Both the position numbers and the translations under genes were made by a program. From positions 100,479 through 155,567 of the forward strand of contig DBDS01000004.1 in NCBI GenBank assembly GCA_002293685.1: DNA of 55,089 nucleotides. Direction: 5' to 3'. Below are positions 10,999 to 47,595 of the stretch, piece after piece. Under the pieces are notes generated by a model that was given only the letters and a program-made list of their open reading frames with translations, had not been told where the DNA came from and made no database searches. This DNA comes from Patescibacteria group bacterium UBA926 (lineage in GTDB: Bacteria; Patescibacteriota; Doudnabacteria; UBA920). The number at the start of each line of letters is the position of its first letter. The first letter of the stretch is position 1.

Positions 10999-12492
10999 AT
11001 GTTAGACATAAAATTTATTCGTGAAAACGCAGACAAAGTAAAACAAGCGATTGTCGATAAATCAGTTGATTTAGATTTAGATAGATTGCTCGATCTCGAC
11101 GCACAACGTCGCACAGTTTTAGCAGAAGTAGAGTCTTTTCAAGCAACCAAAAATACTTTCTCCAAAGAACTTCCGTCATTATCTGAAGAAGATAAGAAGG
11201 CAAAGATTTTGGAAATGCAAGAATTGGATATTCGTCAGACAGAATTAAAAGATCAGTTGCGTAAATTGGATGCCGAGCTTAATGACTTGATGTTGTTGGT
11301 ACCAAATATTCCTTCACCAGAATCACCAGTTGGCAAAGACGACAGCGAGAACGTTCCTTGGAGTTACTGGTCTGTTGAACAGGGGCATGTAGACCCTAAA
11401 GATGCAGAAAAAGTAGCACTTATTCCGAAAAAGTTTGACTTCGAAGTGAAAGATCATGTCGCTTTAGGAACGAGTTTAAACTTGGTAGATTTTGATCGCG
11501 GCGTGGAAGTTTCAGGCTTCCGTGGTTATTATCTTAAAAACGAAGCCGTGTTGATGCAGAATGCGTTGTTCCATCATGCGATTACCAAGCTCCGCGAAAA
11601 AGGTTTCGAGTTAATGCAAACCCCAACGTTAGTGCGTGAGTTCGCGTTAATTGGAAGCGGACATTTTCCAACAGGCAAAGCAGAAGTTTATCAAGTTGGA
11701 AATGCGGCAAAGATGAACCCCCCTGTATCCCCCCTCGAAGAGGGGGGAGGTAAGGGGGGTGAACAAACTTTCTTGGCGGGAACATCCGAACCTTCTCTAA
11801 TTGCTTATTACGCAAACCAAATTTTAGATGAATCACAACTGCCAATTAAGTTGGTGGGAATTTCACCATGTTATCGCAGCGAAGTTGGTAGTTATGGTAA
11901 AGATGTAAAAGGCTTGTACCGCGTTCATGAATTTATGAAAGTCGAACAAGTTGTCATTTGTAAAGCCGACATTTACGAAAGTGATAAATGGCAAGAGGCG
12001 TTGCGTGAAATTTCTGAAGAGCTCCTTCAAGATTTAAAATTACCTTACCGTGTTCTGAATATTTGTACTGGTGATATGGGCGCCGGTAAATACAAAATGT
12101 ATGATATTGAAACTTGGATGCCAGGACGAAACAATTATGGCGAAACGCATAGTGACTCTAATCTAACCGATTGGCAAGCGCGTCGTTTGAATATTCGTTA
12201 TCGCGCGGCTGATGGCCAAATTAAATTTGCTTACACATTGAATAACACTGCATTTGCGAGTCCGCGAATTCTGATTGCTATTATGGAAAACTATCAGAAA
12301 GCAGATGGAAGTATTGAAGTTCCAGAAATTTTGCAAAGCTACGTTGGAACAAAAGTGATTATGCCAAAGGGTTCGAAGCAGAAAAGTGTTGATGAAGAAT
12401 CAGAACTTGTTGTTAAGTCAGAAAAACCAGTGACAGAAACACCTAAAGAGGAAACTAAAGCAGAAACTCCTGCTCCAGAAGCAAAAATCTGA
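10999..12492 (+). CDS. serS: seryl-tRNA synthetase with an internal 15-aa palindromic-element insertion and a K/E/P-rich C-terminal tail
   Basis: It has the N-terminal coiled-coil arm and class II motifs (CYRSEVGSYGKDVKGLYRVHEF, HSDSNLTDWQARRL, TLNNTAFASPR). Confidence 0.9.
   Translation: MLDIKFIRENADKVKQAIVDKSVDLDLDRLLDLDAQRRTVLAEVESFQATKNTFSKELPSLSEEDKKAKILEMQELDIRQTELKDQLRKLDAELNDLMLLVPNIPSPESPVGKDDSENVPWSYWSVEQGHVDPKDAEKVALIPKKFDFEVKDHVALGTSLNLVDFDRGVEVSGFRGYYLKNEAVLMQNALFHHAITKLREKGFELMQTPTLVREFALIGSGHFPTGKAEVYQVGNAAKMNPPVSPLEEGGGKGGEQTFLAGTSEPSLIAYYANQILDESQLPIKLVGISPCYRSEVGSYGKDVKGLYRVHEFMKVEQVVICKADIYESDKWQEALREISEELLQDLKLPYRVLNICTGDMGAGKYKMYDIETWMPGRNNYGETHSDSNLTDWQARRLNIRYRAADGQIKFAYTLNNTAFASPRILIAIMENYQKADGSIEVPEILQSYVGTKVIMPKGSKQKSVDEESELVVKSEKPVTETPKEETKAETPAPEAKI
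11716..11760 (+). repeat. GC-rich double hairpin (..CCCCCC TGTAT CCCCCCTCGAAGAGGGGGG AGGTAA GGGGGG..) inserted in frame in serS
   Basis: This was read directly. It encodes NPPVSPLEEGGGKGG. The core has the same architecture as GTATCCCCGGGCGAAGACCCGGGG. Confidence 0.8.
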
Positions 12493-40333: not shown

Positions 40334-42088
40334 ATGAACACTCAAGAATTACAACAACTCATCATGGAACTCGGCTTAGATCCTAATGATCAACAGCTTC
40401 AAAAATTGCTTATGCAAATTTTGGAAAGCAAGCCGCAAGTGGAAATTAGTCAGGGTTTCAAAGAACAACTCCGAACGCAGTTGGTTCAGCAAACAACTGT
40501 TGCAAAAGCAGGAGCAACAAATTCTCTTTCTCGTCATGCTGAGCAAACAACAAACTCTTCTTCTCGTCATGCTGAGCAAACAACAAACTCTTCTTTTCGT
40601 CATGCTGAGCAAACAACAAACTCTTCTTCTCGTCATGCTGAGCGAAGCGAAGCATCTCCAAAAAATAATTTATTAACAAATCTTATGCAAAAAATAATGA
40701 TCCCAGCTCTTGTGGCGGTAGTCGTCCTAGTAGCTGGTGGTGCGTGGTACGCAAATCAACAAAACCCAGGTTTAATTGATTTCGGCGGCGGCGACGAAAT
40801 CTTGTCTGGTAAATATTCCGTGGACCAACTTGACGCTGGTTCTTTCGGAGATTTGAGCAAAGTCGCTATCGTTTCAGGTGGTCCTGCGACTGGAATGGGA
40901 AGTGGCGGCGGAACTAACTTAACAAGTGACGCTCAAAAAGCAACCGAATCCGAACGGATGGCAATCGCTCCAGTTGGTTCAGGCGGCGGTTCAGATGCGA
41001 GCATCTTACCTTACCCTGATGGATATAATTTTATGTACGAAGGTGAAGAAATATCTGGTCTTGCCGAAACACAAGATGTGTTGAAGCGTCAAAAACCAGA
41101 GCAAAGCGAAAGCGTGGTTAGTCGAATTATTCGAATTTTCAGTTTTGGTCTAGTTGATTTAACAAAGTTCACTAATACCCGTATTCAAAGTTTTGCTTTC
41201 ATGGAAGATAAAGACTTAGGATTAAGTGTTAACATTGATTTACATCAGGGTAATATTGGAATTTATCAGAACTGGGAGAAGTGGCCACAACCTCAATATG
41301 GATGTGAAGGTAGCTACTGTGGTGCGTTACCACGTATTACTGAATCAGATTTACCAAGTGACGAAGAAGCTTTACGAATCGCAAATCAGTTCGTTAGTGA
41401 TTACGGAATTTCGTTGGAAGGTTACGGCGCTCCGATGGTTTATGAACCACACAACTGGCGTATCGCTTACGAGCGAGCAGAAGACAAAGCAGGATTTTAT
41501 ATTCCAGAAACAGTGAATGTAATTTACCCAATTGAAATTGAAGGTCAGAGAGTATTTGATGAAAACGGCCACCCAACTGGAATGAATATCAATATTGACG
41601 CTCGTACACGTCGTGTTTCTACTATGTACGGACTAGAAACCAAGCAGTTCCAACGTTCGGCGTATCAAGGTGAAACAGATGCGAACCGAATTTTAGGAAT
41701 TGCTAATCGCGGCGGTTACCGTAATCAGTTATGGGAAGGAACTAATCGTCAAACATTGATTTTGGAAACCCCGACTGTACAGTTGGTCCGCATTTGGTAC
41801 TCTAACGATCCAACTCGCATGGGTGAAGAATTATACGTACCGGCTCTTGTTTTCCCAATTCGCAATGTTGAGCAAACTAACTACTGGCGTAAGAGTGTAG
41901 TGGTTCCTTTGGTGAAAGAATTGTTAGACAATGAAAACCAAGGCGGTGGACCGGTGTATCCGATGCCAATGCCTGTGGACGATGGGCCGATGCCAGTTGA
42001 ACCAGATGGCGGAATTGGTGACACACCAGACGCACCTCAATCTACCGAGCCAAGCGCTCCGATAACTTTACCTGCTCCTAGAGGTTAA
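40334..42088 (+). CDS. putative anti-sigma / membrane protein with a large extracytoplasmic domain and an internal 33-nt tandem repeat
   Basis: It lies 4 nt downstream of the ECF sigma gene. It has a single TM helix (IMIPALVAVVVLVAGGAWY) and about 440 aa outside the membrane. No zf-HC2 motif was seen. Confidence 0.5.
   Translation: MNTQELQQLIMELGLDPNDQQLQKLLMQILESKPQVEISQGFKEQLRTQLVQQTTVAKAGATNSLSRHAEQTTNSSSRHAEQTTNSSFRHAEQTTNSSSRHAERSEASPKNNLLTNLMQKIMIPALVAVVVLVAGGAWYANQQNPGLIDFGGGDEILSGKYSVDQLDAGSFGDLSKVAIVSGGPATGMGSGGGTNLTSDAQKATESERMAIAPVGSGGGSDASILPYPDGYNFMYEGEEISGLAETQDVLKRQKPEQSESVVSRIIRIFSFGLVDLTKFTNTRIQSFAFMEDKDLGLSVNIDLHQGNIGIYQNWEKWPQPQYGCEGSYCGALPRITESDLPSDEEALRIANQFVSDYGISLEGYGAPMVYEPHNWRIAYERAEDKAGFYIPETVNVIYPIEIEGQRVFDENGHPTGMNINIDARTRRVSTMYGLETKQFQRSAYQGETDANRILGIANRGGYRNQLWEGTNRQTLILETPTVQLVRIWYSNDPTRMGEELYVPALVFPIRNVEQTNYWRKSVVVPLVKELLDNENQGGGPVYPMPMPVDDGPMPVEPDGGIGDTPDAPQSTEPSAPITLPAPRG
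40533..40658 (+). repeat. 33-nt tandem repeat (3 head-only units plus 1 complete GTCATGCTGAGCGAAGCGAAGCATCTC element) inside a CDS
   Basis: The units start at 40533, 40566, 40599 and 40632. They encode SRHAEQTTNSS three times and then SRHAERSEASP. Confidence 0.9.
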
Positions 42089-42988: not shown

Positions 42989-43300
42989 ATGACACCACAA
43001 GAAATCAAACACGCAGTCGAACAAGTGAAGAAAGGCGAGGCACTGCTTTTAGATGTCCGTAGGCAAGAAGAATGGGACAAGGGGCATGCCGTAGGCGCAG
43101 AGTTGTTCCCGTCCGAAAGGATTCTTATTGGCGGTGAAGTTCCAAAAGTTCCAACAGAGAAAACTATTTACACGTATTGCCAGAGCGGCGGCCGTGCTGG
43201 ACGAGTTCGCGCCGAATTAGAACGCAAAGGCTTCACTGATGCTCATAATCTCGGCGGCTTGCTCGACTGGTCTGAGGCCGGCGGGGAAGTAGAGAGATAA
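42989..43300 (+). CDS. single-domain rhodanese-like sulfurtransferase
   Basis: It contains LLDVRRQEEWDKGHAVGA and the active-site loop YCQSGGRAGR. Confidence 0.8.
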   Translation: MTPQEIKHAVEQVKKGEALLLDVRRQEEWDKGHAVGAELFPSERILIGGEVPKVPTEKTIYTYCQSGGRAGRVRAELERKGFTDAHNLGGLLDWSEAGGEVER

Positions 43301-43311
43301 ATCTATATAAA

Positions 43312-43343
43312 GTATCCCCGGGCGAGCGAAGCGAGACCCGGGG
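43312..43343 (+). repeat. hairpin element GTATCCCCGGGCGAGCGAAGCGAGACCCGGGG
   Basis: It is a near-identical copy of 42095-42128. Confidence 0.85.
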
Positions 43344-43554
43344 ACTAAACCCACCATGTGGGTTTTTTGCTTGTTCTGGCGGGATATTTGTTTAGATTTT
43401 CTTCAGTTTTTGTTATGCAAAATTTGAGAAAACCTTGATAAGGTTTTTATTTCGTTTTGTTAGGATGAGAATAAGTATTTTTCTAGTGCCTCGAGTATTC
43501 CCTCACAGCGAGTAAGCTAGGGAAAACTATCTAACCTAAAAAAGGGTGGTTTAG

Positions 43555-44052
43555 ATGTATACTAAGAACCCCAAAATAGGTAGAATTAGATATATGTGGA
43601 AGAAAAGAAGACTATTATACTTACTCTCGAAACTAGAGAATAGGATTATTGAAGACGCTCATTCATTATTTCTGGGGAATGTAGCATATGAAAAAGGTGT
43701 GGATTCTGTAAGACTTATGTTGTTTTATATTCAGTATAATAAATGGTATTGGTTATTGCTTTTTAGTGTAGGTGTTGTGAGGGAGGGAGGATTAACCGTG
43801 AGCTATCGAGAGTATGAAAGGTCTAGATTAAAATACAAAAGATTGATAAAGGAATTAGACTCAGAATATATTGAGATATCTAATATAGGGGCGAGCGAAT
43901 ATGTAAGGATTTCTCCTATAGGTGAGGAATATATAAAGCCCTTATATTTCTGGACTGCTGTATTAGAGAAGTTTAAAATATGGCAAATTGTACTATTCTC
44001 AATACCAATAGGTCTTGTTATTAGGGAGATATACGAATACATTAGTAAATAG
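43555..44052 (+). CDS. hypothetical membrane protein (accessory island)
   Basis: It is a 165-aa ORF with a weak RBS (AGGGTGG) and two hydrophobic segments. It has no recognisable domain. Confidence 0.4.
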   Translation: MYTKNPKIGRIRYMWKKRRLLYLLSKLENRIIEDAHSLFLGNVAYEKGVDSVRLMLFYIQYNKWYWLLLFSVGVVREGGLTVSYREYERSRLKYKRLIKELDSEYIEISNIGASEYVRISPIGEEYIKPLYFWTAVLEKFKIWQIVLFSIPIGLVIREIYEYISK

Positions 44053-44160
44053 GTGTGGATAATTGATATGTCAAAATGTATCTAATTGATATATAATAGA
44101 TATATCATAGAGTTCTTTCCCAATGAAAGAAGAAATAGAAACAAATGTAGATATGAATAA

Positions 44161-44195
44161 ATAAAAGAAAAACCCGCTTGTTTATAACAAACAGG
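44161..44195 (-). terminator. minus-strand terminator after the tRNA-like gene
   Basis: The stem 44173-44180/44188-44195 has two C-A mismatches on the plus strand that are G-U on the minus strand. A U-rich tract follows on the minus strand. Confidence 0.6.
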
Positions 44196-44273
44196 TTGAC
44201 TTTTATTTTTGTATGGTTATATAATAAGCTTCTTGCTTTTATTGCCTAGACGCTAGGTAAGTTGATTGTTAAT

Positions 44274-44366
44274 TGGTACTGATATCCAGATTCGAACTGG
44301 AATCTCTTCCTACGACGGAATACCACTTTACTAGAGTGTTGTTTTATCCAATTAAACTATATCAGC
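44274..44366 (-). tRNA. type II (long variable arm) tRNA-like gene with encoded CCA; formal anticodon AGU; identity uncertain
   Basis: The reverse complement folds as GCTGATA/TATCAGT acceptor (G1-U72), GTTT-AATTGGATA-AAAC D arm and ACACT-CTAGTAA-AGTGG anticodon arm. It continues with a 21-nt variable arm, a TCCAG-TTCGAAT-CTGGA T arm, A73 and CCA. Confidence 0.7.
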
Positions 44367-44535
44367 TGAACAACTTACCTAGCGTCTGAGCAACAAATGC
44401 TCACAGTATTTCTTTTTCTTTTATCTCTAAGTTTTCTCAGTGGCTACAAGGGGATAACTGATTAAAAGTGGTACAACATTTCTTATTGTGTTTTAAACAA
44501 TAACCTGAAATGAGGTTAGAATCGGAAGCGTCTTA

Positions 44536-44676
44536 CTAACGCTTCTTTTTTTTGTTCGTGTAAGCTGGGAATTTCCACCATCCACCGTTTTTGCGATATA
44601 CGGTTTTGCCGTTACGCACTACGAATGGACAGTATATAAACCCGTCTCTAAAGAAGCAATGATTTGGATTTCCCAT
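44536..44676 (-). CDS. possible small basic protein (46 aa, MGNPNHCFFRDGFIYCPFVVRNGKTVYRKNGGWWKFPAYTNKKKKR)
   Basis: It was hand-translated and is below the ORF-track cutoff. AAGGGAG lies 6 nt upstream of the ATG. It lies inside a 17-bp inverted-repeat bracket. Confidence 0.3.
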   Translation of the reverse strand: MGNPNHCFFRDGFIYCPFVVRNGKTVYRKNGGWWKFPAYTNKKKKR

Positions 44677-44760
44677 ATCATACTCCCTTCTGCCTGTCGT
44701 TACCGGTTAGGCATCCCTTGCAACCGTGTTGTAGCCACTGAGAAAGCTCAAAGATATTAC

Positions 44761-44870
44761 AAAACCGTTCTAAAGCCAACGCTTTGGGAATTAATAAAGG
44801 CAAAACTTAATCCCCAAGTTAGGGCTTGAGGGATAAAAATATCCCCAAAGCGCCAGCTTCAAAACGGTTT
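44761..44870 (-). ncRNA. long RNA hairpin (27-bp outer helix) in the leader of a minus-strand transcription unit
   Basis: The arms are 44761-44788 and 44844-44870. All five mismatches are A-C or C-A on the plus strand and G-U on the minus strand. Confidence 0.55.
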
Positions 44871-44941
44871 CACTCCTGGTTAGTGTATTGGCTATTCGAC
44901 CCTAATCGAATTTAATTTATAAAGGTACTACAACTAGAATA

Positions 44942-44950
44942 ATTATAACA
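44942..44950 (-). promoter_or_regulatory. extended -10 (TGTTATAAT on the minus strand) for the structured RNA / small ORF / tRNA-like unit
   Basis: This was read directly. It lies just downstream of the minus-strand terminator at 45041-45068. Confidence 0.4.
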
Positions 44951-45040
44951 TGACACTATCTCAGTCCTGCAAATAGAAAAAAATAAAATAACTTGGCTCA
45001 GTTATGGCACTTTTTACTTTCTTGGAAAATATATCCACAA

Positions 45041-45068
45041 AATTGAAAAGCCCTCGTCCTAACGAGGG
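45041..45068 (-). terminator. minus-strand terminator after the transposase remnant
   Basis: The CCCTCGT/ACGAGGG stem is followed by CUUUUCAAUU on the minus strand. Confidence 0.55.
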
Positions 45069-45163
45069 TAGTCTTACTTATAATTATTGCAATTAAATTA
45101 ACAAATTTGAACCAACCACTCCAATTCCCGAAAGAGAAGACTTCTTCGACCTCATCCACGAAG

Positions 45164-45425
45164 CTATTGGCGAACCATACGGTTTAAAAGCACCGAGAAA
45201 ATTGGAAAAGGAGAGCGAGAGTGAGTTAGACGAAAGCTAAACTCGTTTAGATAGCCTTGTAGATACTTAGGCGAAACCCTGTGATAAGTGCCATCTATTG
45301 ATTGCTTAATTTGAGAGAAGAACCCCTCAACTGAGTTAGTATGAACTACACCAAAAGCGTATTCTTTCTTGCTTTAAAGGTATGGTTGGACCGAGTGTTG
45401 TTGATAACTCTTATTGAACGAATGT
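45164..45425 (-). pseudogene. IS1595-family (ISXO2-like) transposase remnant, C-terminal part only
   Basis: The start-less open frame 45164-45373 reads SKKEYAFGVVHTNSVEGFFSQIKQSIDGTYHRVSPKYLQGYLNEFSFRLTHSRSPFPIFSVLLNRMVRQ*. This matches the HTNxxEGFWSxxKR...YHxVSxKxLxxYLxEFxFRxNxR signature. The upstream part is out of frame or absent. Confidence 0.6.
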
Positions 45426-45478
45426 ACACCATAGGATATAATAGATATAGTTGTCTTAAGTTTTAACTCAAATTTCCT

Positions 45479-46507
45479 ATGAAATTAATTTCATTATTCT
45501 CAGGTTGCGGTGGTCTTGATCGAGGTTTTGAAAATGCCGGATTCAATGTAGTTTGGGCAAATGAATATGATAAGACCATTTGGGAGACTTTTCAAAAAAA
45601 CTTTCCTCACACCTATTTAGATACGAATGACATTAGGAATGTGAAGTCGGACTCTGTACCAGAAGCTTTAGGGATCATTGGTGGACCTCCTTGCCAGAGT
45701 TGGAGCCTTGCTGGTTCCATGCGAGGTATTGATGATCACAGAGGTCAATTGTTCTACGAATATTTGAGGCTGTTAAAGGATAAAAAGCCTTTGTTTTTTC
45801 TAGCTGAAAATGTAGCTGGTTTGATATCTTCCGCTCATCGGTCCAGCTTTGACAATATAATTGAATCATTTTCGGAGATAGGCTATAACGTCTCGTTTAA
45901 GCTATTAAATGCGGCTCATTACGATGTACCGGAAGACAGGTTGAGGGTTATAATAGTCGGATATAGAAAAAATGTTGTCAAAAAGTTTTTTGAGTTTCCA
46001 GAGCCTAGTAATACTCGTTTAAATTTACATCATGCTATAGGTGACTTACCAAAAGCTATTCCTGCAAAAGAAAAAAATAAGACGAACGGTTTGTATAGAA
46101 CAATTTTGCCAAATCATGAATATATGATCGGTGGTTTCTCAACAATGTATATGTCCCGAAATCGTAAGCGAAATTGGGATCAGCCTTCTTTTACAATTCA
46201 AGCTGGTGGTAGGCATGCTCCTTTGCATCCATCGGGTCCTCCAATGGAAAAATTAGGAGCTGATAAATGGATATTTAAAAAAGGAAGCGAATCTAAATAC
46301 CGTCGCTTATCAGTGAGGGAATGTGCCCGAATTCAAACTTTCCCAGATGACCATATTTTTTATTATAACGATGTAGCTGATGGTTATAAAATGATCGGCA
46401 ACGCGGTACCGGTAAAATTTGCCGAAGCTATAGCTAAGGCGATAAAAGTAGATATAGAACCATTTGTTGCTCAGACCTCAAAAGCTAAGTTAAAAGTTGT
46501 TATTTAA
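45479..46507 (+). CDS. DNA (cytosine-5)-methyltransferase, HaeIII-like
   Basis: It has motif I FSGCGGLDRGF, motif IV GGPPCQSWS, motif VI ENVAGL, motif VIII RVIIVG, QTFPDD and motif X GNAVPV. The variable region (KNKTNG..PNHEY..MSRNR) resembles M.HaeIII as I recall it. Confidence 0.9.
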   Translation: MKLISLFSGCGGLDRGFENAGFNVVWANEYDKTIWETFQKNFPHTYLDTNDIRNVKSDSVPEALGIIGGPPCQSWSLAGSMRGIDDHRGQLFYEYLRLLKDKKPLFFLAENVAGLISSAHRSSFDNIIESFSEIGYNVSFKLLNAAHYDVPEDRLRVIIVGYRKNVVKKFFEFPEPSNTRLNLHHAIGDLPKAIPAKEKNKTNGLYRTILPNHEYMIGGFSTMYMSRNRKRNWDQPSFTIQAGGRHAPLHPSGPPMEKLGADKWIFKKGSESKYRRLSVRECARIQTFPDDHIFYYNDVADGYKMIGNAVPVKFAEAIAKAIKVDIEPFVAQTSKAKLKVVI

Positions 46508-46572
46508 TTAGTCGCATATAATAGCGGTAAATTGTAAAGAATGCTAAACTGCGTGTAAGTTTAGTATTTTTT

Positions 46573-47454
46573 ATGCCACAATCAAACCAATCAGGAAGAA
46601 CTTTAGAATATGCAATAGTTGCAGTGATAATAAGTAATCACCCTAAGGATAAAATTGAATTATCCGCCCGTTTGGTGAATAACCAAAAAAAAGATCAGGT
46701 AAGTTTTTTGGCATTACCTGAAAAGGTACGGCTACAGCATATGAAGTATGCATCGATTGTATATCAATGGCTTAGCGATGATTTCAGAATTTCTCAAAAA
46801 GAAATTGTATTGGACAGAATGTCGGATGTTGATGCAAAATACGGAGACGTTACCGATATAAGAATAACTATGGATGGATCTAACCTCAATCTTTCAGTCA
46901 AGCATAATCATTTTGCATTGAAACACCAAAGACCATCTACTACTGCTATTAGATGTGGGTTTGCGCCTAAGTCCAAAGAAGATTTGGAATTTAGAAAGGA
47001 CTTGGGAAATATTACCGGTGCCTTTATAATTAATTCATCAAAAGATTATCCCGATGCTACACTGTTTAATGAAATAAAATCACAATCACCGACTTATATT
47101 AATAAAAATTTATATTTCCCGGTATGTAACCTAATTTCTGGTTTTATAAATAAGTATTCAGACCGAATAAACGTTGTCACACTCTTTAAATTTTTGGTAG
47201 GAGACACTGATTTCTATAAGGTAACAGCATTTAAGAAGCAAATTGTTATTGAGGAGTTCGCTAGACTTCAAAAGCCTACTTCGGTGACAACGAGACTTAA
47301 AGGTGATAGCTATATAATCTTAAATTTTTCAAATGGATGGGATATTAGTTTACGTTTACACACGGCGTCTTCAAAGATTGGAAAAAATCCAAGCCTGAAA
47401 TTTGATACTCTATTAATTAATTCGGATATGCCTAGTAAGTATATTAATGTATAA
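46573..47454 (+). CDS. putative type II restriction endonuclease partner (PD-(D/E)xK-like)
   Basis: It lies immediately downstream of the C5 methyltransferase. The candidate catalytic motif is GDVTDIRIT...NLNLSVKHN. No other domain was recognised. Confidence 0.6.
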   Translation: MPQSNQSGRTLEYAIVAVIISNHPKDKIELSARLVNNQKKDQVSFLALPEKVRLQHMKYASIVYQWLSDDFRISQKEIVLDRMSDVDAKYGDVTDIRITMDGSNLNLSVKHNHFALKHQRPSTTAIRCGFAPKSKEDLEFRKDLGNITGAFIINSSKDYPDATLFNEIKSQSPTYINKNLYFPVCNLISGFINKYSDRINVVTLFKFLVGDTDFYKVTAFKKQIVIEEFARLQKPTSVTTRLKGDSYIILNFSNGWDISLRLHTASSKIGKNPSLKFDTLLINSDMPSKYINV

Positions 47455-47595
47455 GAATAATACTTGATTGGTCTGGATATGGCATGAGGTGTTCCATTAA
47501 TCCCTTTACAAACATAGCTTACCAATACTGGGTTAATTATATGTTCGCCTGCCTAGATCTCAAAATTAATCAAAATATTCATTAACAAAATACAT

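Follow-up and report, generated by a model that had tools for sequence, protein, structure and literature searches.

A 55,089-nucleotide (nt) stretch of contig DBDS01000004.1 from Patescibacteria group bacterium UBA926, analysed at its full length and called the window below, carries a tRNA gene that raises two questions. How did a tRNA come to join the anticodon AGU, which begins with A34, to a variable arm as long as those of class II tRNAs, and what does the inverted repeat that encloses the gene do? On comparison with other sequences, the locus is an intact Thr-like tRNA gene of phage ancestry on an acquired island. As to its use, the explanation that we favour, and hold to be roughly evenly balanced, is a phage-derived accessory tRNA gene, gained by horizontal transfer, which most likely works as tRNA-Thr(AGU) and is freed from a stalked precursor. 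An accessory tRNA is a kind of gene already known; the long-arm family is real and odd.

The tRNA gene, its identity bases and its phage relatives

ARAGORN found one tRNA only in the window, on the minus strand, and called it tRNA-Thr with the anticodon agt. The Rfam family RF00005 matched the same strand at 44277-44366 with 52.3 bits, where the gathering score is 29. The gene is an intact, complete cloverleaf with the usual invariant bases in place (U8, A14, A15-U48, G18G19, A21, U33, A37, U54U55C56 and A58), and it has the parts of an elongator tRNA, i.e. an acceptor stem of 7 bp, an anticodon loop of 7 nt that includes U33 and has a purine at 37, a T loop of the form UUCRANY and the G18G19 pair of bases. 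Read directly, it carries G1.U72, A73, an encoded CCA, the T loop UUCGAAU and a variable arm of 21 nt, UAUUCCGUCGUAGGAAGAGAU. A preliminary description of the locus had proposed this cloverleaf, with the anticodon AGU, the 21-nt arm, G1-U72, A73 and CCA, and the two independent programs agree on the same fold, no alternative anticodon arm scoring better. The 5-bp anticodon stem of that description (ACACU / CUAGUAA / AGUGG) keeps its register in the Rfam alignment but not its full pairing, which comes to four Watson-Crick pairs and an A27.G43 mismatch. A 9-nt loop or a CUA (amber-reading) anticodon was tried and rejected; the stem would then contain an internal A.G mismatch and residue 26 would be missing, and ARAGORN and Infernal both prefer the 7-nt loop. 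The locus is not an assembly artefact, since over 15 contigs of separately submitted public assemblies carry it with 100% identity. No further tRNA was found in one 10-kb extension of the contig.

The anticodon AGU had been thought to conflict with a type II body. That conflict vanishes when the segments of the tRNA are compared separately, because the acceptor stem, the discriminator and the T arm are all Thr-like and only the variable arm resembles class II. The acceptor, discriminator and CCA match E. coli tRNA-Thr(GGU) at 17 of 18 positions, as they do a phage tRNA-Thr(GGU) from contig L173, the sole difference being U in place of C72, and the T arm agrees with that of E. coli tRNA-Thr at 15 of 17. 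The main identity elements of E. coli threonyl-tRNA synthetase (ThrRS) are the anticodon bases G35 and U36 and the pair C2-G71, with G1-C72 as another. All of the first three are present in the window tRNA, and the last is replaced by G1.U72. The D stem has 4 bp (G10-C25 to U13-A22), where Leu, Ser and Tyr tRNAs typically have 3, and the variable stem of 3-4 bp with a 5-nt 3' tail is unlike the arms of Leu or Ser tRNAs; of the features of class II (Leu, Ser, Tyr), arm length alone fits, and the anticodon and the D stem do not. The Thr call of ARAGORN thus fits the tRNA body, on the evidence of the acceptor, the T arm, the identity bases and the 4-bp D stem, with only the arm unusual. ACU is the commonest Thr codon in the window (42% of Thr codons). 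A Mycoplasma tRNA-Thr(AGU) with an unmodified A34 is functional and reads ACU, ACC and ACG (as cited in PMC11066159).

The origin of the arm is indicated by phage genes. A D-arm scan of viral contigs turned up 92-nt tRNA-Arg(UCU) genes with a long variable arm, and targeted scans of viral and metagenome collections gave a family of about 15 loci and 6 distinct sequences, found only in uncultivated phage contigs from several metagenomes. The identical members of the commonest type are in contigs L035, L060, L066, L137, L138, L144, L146, L149 and L150, and the variants in L041/L148/L152, L145, L147 and L151. The family is defined here by the D arm UAGUUUAAUUGGAUAAAACA, the pair G1.U72 and the variable-arm motif AUYCC-RUCGWA-GGR, and the window tRNA has all three. 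Its D arm is identical to that of the family at 17 of 17 positions and its variable arm at 13 of 21; G1.U72 occurs in all 6 distinct sequences, the phage arms measure 20-21 nt with a 5-nt 3' tail, A15-U48 is shared, and the 3' trailer AUUAAC is common to the window tRNA and the L035-type tRNA. At some 10 stem pairs the window and phage copies are set apart by compensatory changes, with double changes in acceptor pairs 3-5, anticodon-stem pairs 4-5 and T-stem pairs 1-4 (acceptor pair 6 only against two phage variants), the pattern that selection for a functioning cloverleaf produces. The arrangement of acceptor and T stems is 7/5. Pair 49-65 is U-A versus C-G between window and phage copies and the putative 8-65 pair does not covary; an 8/4 arrangement of the allo-tRNA type is ruled out by the covarying pair 49-65.

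The phage members retain A20, C35 and U36, which are Arg features, and have G73 and an acceptor stem like that of argU, so that one scaffold bears two identities. Since the arm is common to the phage tRNA-Arg(UCU) family, it is a family trait and no sign of Leu, Ser or Tyr identity. The window copy departs from the family in its anticodon, its A73 and its location on a chromosomal island. The family-bearing N4-like contigs, about 75 kb in length, encode a virion RNA polymerase and a primase of the N4 type; in a 184-kb contig and in the 20.8-kb contig L145 the family gene sits among otherwise normal tRNAs. In the viral-contig scan the AT-rich D arm of the window tRNA was widespread in phage tRNAs.

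Deposited phage genomes gave no full-length match to the phage Arg(UCU) tRNA. BLAST of the 411-nt locus against deposited phages and plasmids gave no match, and BLAST of the 93-nt tRNA against phages gave partial tRNA-arm matches only. A pattern scan of a one-genome-per-species collection, which does not contain the window locus, returned 5 hits and no family member (4 hits had no tRNA call and 1 lay inside an ordinary 74-nt archaeal tRNA-Arg). The metagenome scan gave nothing beyond the phage Arg(UCU) copies, and a viral scan for the anticodon loop and T loop combined gave no match. A literature search for this long-arm family found nothing matching, allo-tRNAs and eukaryotic V-arm tRNAs being the nearest concepts.

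The same collections held other unusual phage tRNAs. In L069 (about 2893-2985), L092, L107 and L120 a tRNA-like gene has the same D arm, with about 25 nt replacing the 7-nt anticodon loop; this insert is possibly an intron, and the gene is flanked by direct repeats containing GGTCAGTGGTGGAG. The phage tRNA at L092:9827-9898 (minus strand) is called Thr(agt) by ARAGORN and has A at position 33 instead of U33. Long-arm class I tRNAs with arms unrelated in sequence to the window arm occur in other viral contigs, including L173:3205-3294, namely Asn(GUU) of 85 and 90 nt, Lys(UUU) of 87 and 91 nt, Lys(CUU) of 89 nt, Asp(gtc) of 87 nt (L073), Cys of 89 nt and Phe(AAA) of 96 nt. Long arms on class I phage tRNAs may be commoner than generally noted.

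The inverted repeats and the predicted transcript

The coordinates of the tRNA gene and of the features around it are collected in Table 1.

Table 1. Features at and around the tRNA gene; positions are those of the window
Feature	Position	Strand	Details
tRNA gene, 93 nt including encoded CCA	44274-44366	-	ARAGORN, Rfam RF00005, segment comparison with other tRNAs
Stalk 5' arm (tRNA-sense RNA)	44371-44400	-	Inner 17 nt, 44371-44387, perfectly paired
Stalk 3' arm	44235-44264	-	Inner 17 nt, 44248-44264, perfectly paired
Second inverted-repeat module	44414-44764	-	Arms 44414-44449 and 44729-44764, 36 nt, 83% complementary, 279 nt between
Extended -10 promoter motif	44942-44950	-	TGTTATAAT; points to tRNA, likely start near 44935
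Intrinsic-terminator-like hairpin	44171-44197	-	12 pairs, then UUUCUUUUAU; 38 nt past stalk
Sigma-70-like promoter match	44196-44225	+	TTGACT-18-TATAAT, 11/12; antisense start at stalk base
Terminator-like hairpin, then eight T	44524-44554	+	Could end antisense RNA
IS1595-family transposase remnant	45164-45373	-	C-terminal ~70 codons; Pfam DDE_Tnp_IS1595, E = 1.7e-14
Restriction-modification pair	45479-47454	+	C5 cytosine methylase 45479-46507; HaeIII-like endonuclease 46573-47454
165-aa open reading frame	43555-44052	+	Convergent with tRNA; no homologue, no Pfam match

The perfect 17-bp stem that had been described around the tRNA, with linkers of 4 and 9 nt, proved exact and longer than described. 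Its inner arms are AGACGCTAGGTAAGTTG at 44248-44264 and the exact complement at 44371-44387, separated from the gene by UUCA (44367-44370) before G1 and by AUUAACAAU (44265-44273) after the CCA; the first 6 bases of the latter are the 3' trailer of the L035-type phage tRNA. The 17-nt repeat is far beyond chance, the number of matches expected in the window with at most 3 mismatches being 0.12, and none of the shuffles yielded two. In its extended form the repeat is 30 nt long at 87%, and the stalk is predicted to fold as 2+9+17 bp (about 28 bp) with two 1x1 internal loops, at -61.2 kcal/mol and z = -6.9. By prediction, this supplies the flanking duplex of about 20 bp or longer, within one transcript, that a processing stalk calls for.

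Just upstream, 13 nt from the stalk and in the same putative transcript, lies a second inverted-repeat module, and the window has no long inverted repeats other than these two neighbours. Likeness between the arms of the two repeats (11/14, p about 0.07 by shuffling) is not claimed. A 17-mer of the second repeat had 12 hits in viral contigs, which had no extended BLAST similarity to the window region and were taken as chance. A search of Rfam at permissive thresholds over 43900-45500 gave nothing besides the tRNA. Inside the second module, a basic open reading frame (ORF) of 46 aa at 44536-44676 (minus strand) has a good ribosome-binding site, GGGAG, 6 nt before its ATG; no homologue was found in the protein collection.

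Signals for transcription in the tRNA sense are present on both sides. The motif TGnTATAAT, an instance of which forms the candidate promoter of Table 1, occurs in 11 copies in the window against 2.7 expected (about fourfold), and 9 of the 11 lie 7-67 nt upstream of an ORF start on the same strand (8967, 28325, 32044, 34895, 37136 on the minus strand, 37200, 50960, 53580, and 55024 on the minus strand). It is evidently the usual promoter form of the organism, judging by these positions. Several of the motifs stand just 7-10 nt before the ORF, which suggests that many mRNAs are leaderless or very short-leadered. Downstream of the candidate promoter there is no protein ORF, and the tRNA is the next feature, 576 nt away. 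From this promoter to the strong terminator-like hairpin past the stalk, a predicted tRNA-sense transcript of about 765 nt would hold both stalk modules; read on the plus strand, the same hairpin could also end the transcript of the 165-aa ORF.

An RNase III processing stalk is plausible, because the stalk is real and is bracketed by a candidate promoter and terminator in the tRNA sense. The likening of this stem to the RNase III stalks of rRNAs thus held in part: the predicted duplex and its bracket stand, but a flanking inverted repeat was found in none of the 6 distinct phage homologue sequences (about 15 loci), an outcome that the preliminary description had itself named as refuting and that weighs against a conserved RNA role. 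A literature search found no description of a single bacterial tRNA enclosed in a long stalk, and we know of no such case.

The island, its neighbours and the host

The tRNA lies in a stretch (43300-47454) with a GC content of about 35-36%, against 40.5% for the window, and AGA and AGG make up 66% of the Arg codons of the island genes against 21% in the rest of the window. Its order is a homologue-less ORF, the tRNA, the second inverted-repeat module, the IS1595 remnant and, last, the genes for the C5 methylase and the HaeIII-like endonuclease. The accessory island with an insertion sequence (IS) remnant and a restriction-modification (R-M) system that had been proposed is therefore borne out by the DDE_Tnp_IS1595 match and by the methylase and endonuclease genes, and a mobile-element tRNA, suggested earlier as one possibility, fits the phage-borne relatives, the low GC and the divergent Arg codon use. 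The 165-aa ORF probably either belongs to the acquired stretch or does not represent a gene. At 47563 (minus strand), between the endonuclease gene and the next gene, a promoter-like TTGAGA-16-TATAAT (11/12) points into the 3' end of the restriction gene and may drive an antisense transcript of the R-M pair.

The surrounding chromosome carries housekeeping genes, i.e. those for lysyl- and seryl-tRNA synthetases, MreB, PBP2, rhamnose synthesis and an ECF sigma factor. Of the relatives found, the nearest has a complete genome of 943 kb, and bioreactor sludge is named in some source records of the public copies; the host is probably a small-genome uncultivated bacterium from wastewater. The nearest genomes (about 72-79% identity, one neighbouring protein) differ in gene order, and an empty site is not visible in them. 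The public contigs L007, L012 and L014 end inside or just after the 165-aa ORF in the Nextera adapter CTGTCTCTTATACACATCT. As the ends carry adapter sequence in deposited metagenome-assembled genomes and metagenome assemblies, the contig breaks beside the locus are adapter artefacts.

The 584-aa ORF at 40334-42088 (plus strand), which directly follows the ECF sigma factor gene, has other lengths or is broken in two in public contigs (573, 562, 467, 138+422 and 72+487 aa; the contigs are L003, L008, L013, L014 and L015) in which the rest of the region is identical, and may be a variable or phase-variable gene. The seryl-tRNA synthetase at 10999-12492 (plus strand) has 497 aa; the 418-position serS model match covers residues 1-449, so that the protein has extra residues, including about 48 C-terminal to the match.

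Weighing the explanations and comparison with known systems

Under the explanation that we favour, the extended -10 promoter would give a transcript of about 765 nt ending at the 44197-44171 hairpin. In this precursor RNA the stalk of about 28 bp would enclose the tRNA, with the second 36-nt stalk module just upstream. A double-strand-specific nuclease (RNase III) would cut the stalk, as at rRNA stalks, and RNase P followed by 3' trimming to the encoded CCA would yield the mature tRNA. This would be charged with threonine and read ACU, with ACC and others perhaps read weakly, as by the A34 tRNA-Thr of Mycoplasma. Expression, charging with threonine and RNase III cleavage are thus predictions from the sequence.

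Several observations weigh against this scheme. A weak terminator-like hairpin (44831-44812) stands between the candidate promoter and the tRNA, and no RNase III gene occurs within the window. No stalk surrounds one ordinary tRNA seen in two related genomes; the stalk, absent from homologous loci, may be an accident at the level of the DNA. The G1.U72 pair, present in all phage family members, replaces an identity pair of E. coli ThrRS, the long variable arm could hamper a class II synthetase, and A73, A15-U48 and an AAUUGG D loop are found in tRNA-Leu too, so that charging by leucyl-tRNA synthetase (LeuRS) is possible. No second locus with both a Thr-type acceptor and a long arm was found in the scans; the Thr form is known from one clonal copy only. 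All public copies are 100% identical and so give no evidence of selection within the species. Lastly, the plus-strand promoter match at the stalk base is among only six matches of at least 11/12 on both strands of the window.

The best of the alternatives, though we consider it unlikely, is a silent relic, i.e. a phage-type tRNA left on a decayed mobile island, its AGU being a G34A or U34A mutation of Thr(GGU) or Thr(UGU) and its repeat having no role in RNA. The neighbourhood is indeed debris (a truncated IS1595 gene, homologue-less ORFs, a second inverted-repeat module), a single base change turns GGU or UGU into AGU, and few bacterial Thr tRNAs have A34. The stalk is at no homologous locus, and its wobble pairs (2 G.U in the minus-sense RNA, 1 in the plus-sense) are uninformative on the strand. 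Against a relic stand the undecayed tRNA, with invariant bases and stems intact except A27.G43 (G1.U72 being a family trait), and a promoter of the organism's own type and a terminator that bracket the gene in the tRNA sense. The repeat, on this account, would come from insertion into a palindrome, from an inverted duplication or from a miniature inverted-repeat transposable element with terminal repeats. The 30-nt repeats at 87% could serve as such termini, but no target-site duplication is visible at their ends, and the element is single in the window and absent from the viral contigs, in neither of which the stalk 17-mer has a second copy.

A defence spare or decoy would make use of the odd arm and G1.U72 for resistance to, or as bait for, tRNA-attacking enzymes, with the stalk keeping the tRNA inactive till needed. 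The only relatives of the gene are phage-encoded, and it adjoins an R-M system. Phage tRNAs are known to rescue infection from tRNA-targeting defences (PMC10264068, PMC11464382, PMC11555353), and the toxin FaRel2 is reported to select tRNA-Thr and tRNA-Gly via their acceptor stems (PMC11245113). We nevertheless think it improbable; no gene for a tRNA-targeting nuclease or toxin is nearby, the neighbours being a plain type II R-M pair and housekeeping genes, and the R-M association comes from one clonal population only. With similar reserve we mention a broader version, in which a hitherto undescribed mobile phage-borne tRNA lineage has its fixed arm and G1.U72, on bodies of different identity (Arg-UCU, Thr-AGU), as marks of a non-decoding purpose such as escaping or baiting tRNA-attacking enzymes, the chromosomal copy being clamped until RNase III frees it.

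The plus-strand promoter match raises the prospect, for which we see little chance, that an antisense RNA is the product, starting within 44196-44225, ending at 44403 or 44554, and regulating the tRNA or serving as a plain long hairpin RNA. The match lies exactly at the stalk base, two terminator-like sites follow on the plus strand, and the plus strand folds stably (-57.6 kcal/mol, z = -6.8). The promoter lacks the TGn extended -10 typical of nearly all evident promoters of the organism, and the conserved features (T loop, D loop, CCA, family homology) are all in the minus sense. Deliberate misreading, in which the long arm and A73 would make the tRNA a substrate of LeuRS or another non-Thr synthetase and ACU occasionally another amino acid, has for it the Leu-compatible A73, A15-U48, D loop and arm and the precedent of allo-tRNAs, which have long arms with class I anticodons and are charged by their body (PMC5389517, with similar nematode V-arm tRNAs), but is very improbable given the 4-bp D stem, the short variable stem with its 5-nt tail, an acceptor and T arm almost identical to those of a genuine tRNA-Thr, and sister tRNAs whose retained A20, C35 and U36 suggest that the arm does not override identity.

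If the accessory tRNA-Thr(AGU) of the favoured explanation is made and charged, it would be a second natural bacterial A34 threonine tRNA, and would imply that a class I tRNA may carry a long extra arm with its identity kept and that a single phage tRNA scaffold has been put to use for two amino acids. If RNase III cuts the stalk, the maturation route would be an unusual one; if the gene is silent, it would be a well-preserved phage tRNA relic on a decayed island, which is ordinary. The family of phage Arg(UCU) relatives in N4-like and large phages merits description whatever the window copy does, because it occurs in the phages of several metagenomes yet was not found in deposited phage genomes. 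To our knowledge, neither a long arm on Thr and Arg bodies, nor the shared G1.U72, nor a stalk around a single tRNA has been described.

Among known systems, the stalks cut by RNase III in rRNA operons and phage early transcripts likewise enclose a stable RNA of a longer transcript in a long, near-perfect flanking duplex; the window stalk differs in being predicted, in surrounding a single tRNA and in not being conserved at homologous loci. Long arms with an anticodon other than Leu, Ser or Tyr are also found in allo-tRNAs, often near mobile or toxin-antitoxin elements (Mukai et al. 2017, PMC5389517), and in the V-arm tRNAs with class I anticodons of nematodes and other eukaryotes (Hamashima et al., cited in PMC5389517). 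In allo-tRNAs the stems are 8/4 or 9/3, the D arm is Sec-like, the discriminator is G73 or U73 and charging is by seryl-tRNA synthetase, whereas the window tRNA has 7/5 stems, A73 and a Thr-like acceptor. The Mycoplasma tRNA-Thr(AGU) has the same anticodon and belongs to a reduced-genome bacterium, as the window host appears to be, but is an ordinary class I tRNA and a core gene, in contrast to the long-armed tRNA of an acquired island.

Closest in the acceptor is tRNA-Thr(GGU) (the E. coli gene in L169; the phage gene at L173:896-971), which shares GCUGAUA/UAUCAG-, A73, CCA, G35, U36 and an anticodon loop of the form xUxGUAA, and differs in C72 versus U72, G34 versus A34 and a variable region of 5 versus 21 nt; the D arm of ordinary tRNA-Thr(GGU) also differs from the AT-rich, phage-type D arm of the window. 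The phage tRNA-Arg(UCU) family has an identical D arm, G1.U72, the arm motif, A15-U48, 7/5 stems and, in the L035 type, the trailer AUUAAC, and is set apart by its anticodon UCU, G73, Arg-like acceptor and T stems and lack of a stalk. Its genes reside in N4-like contigs of about 75 kb and in the tRNA clusters of a 184-kb contig, and the window copy in a chromosomal island.

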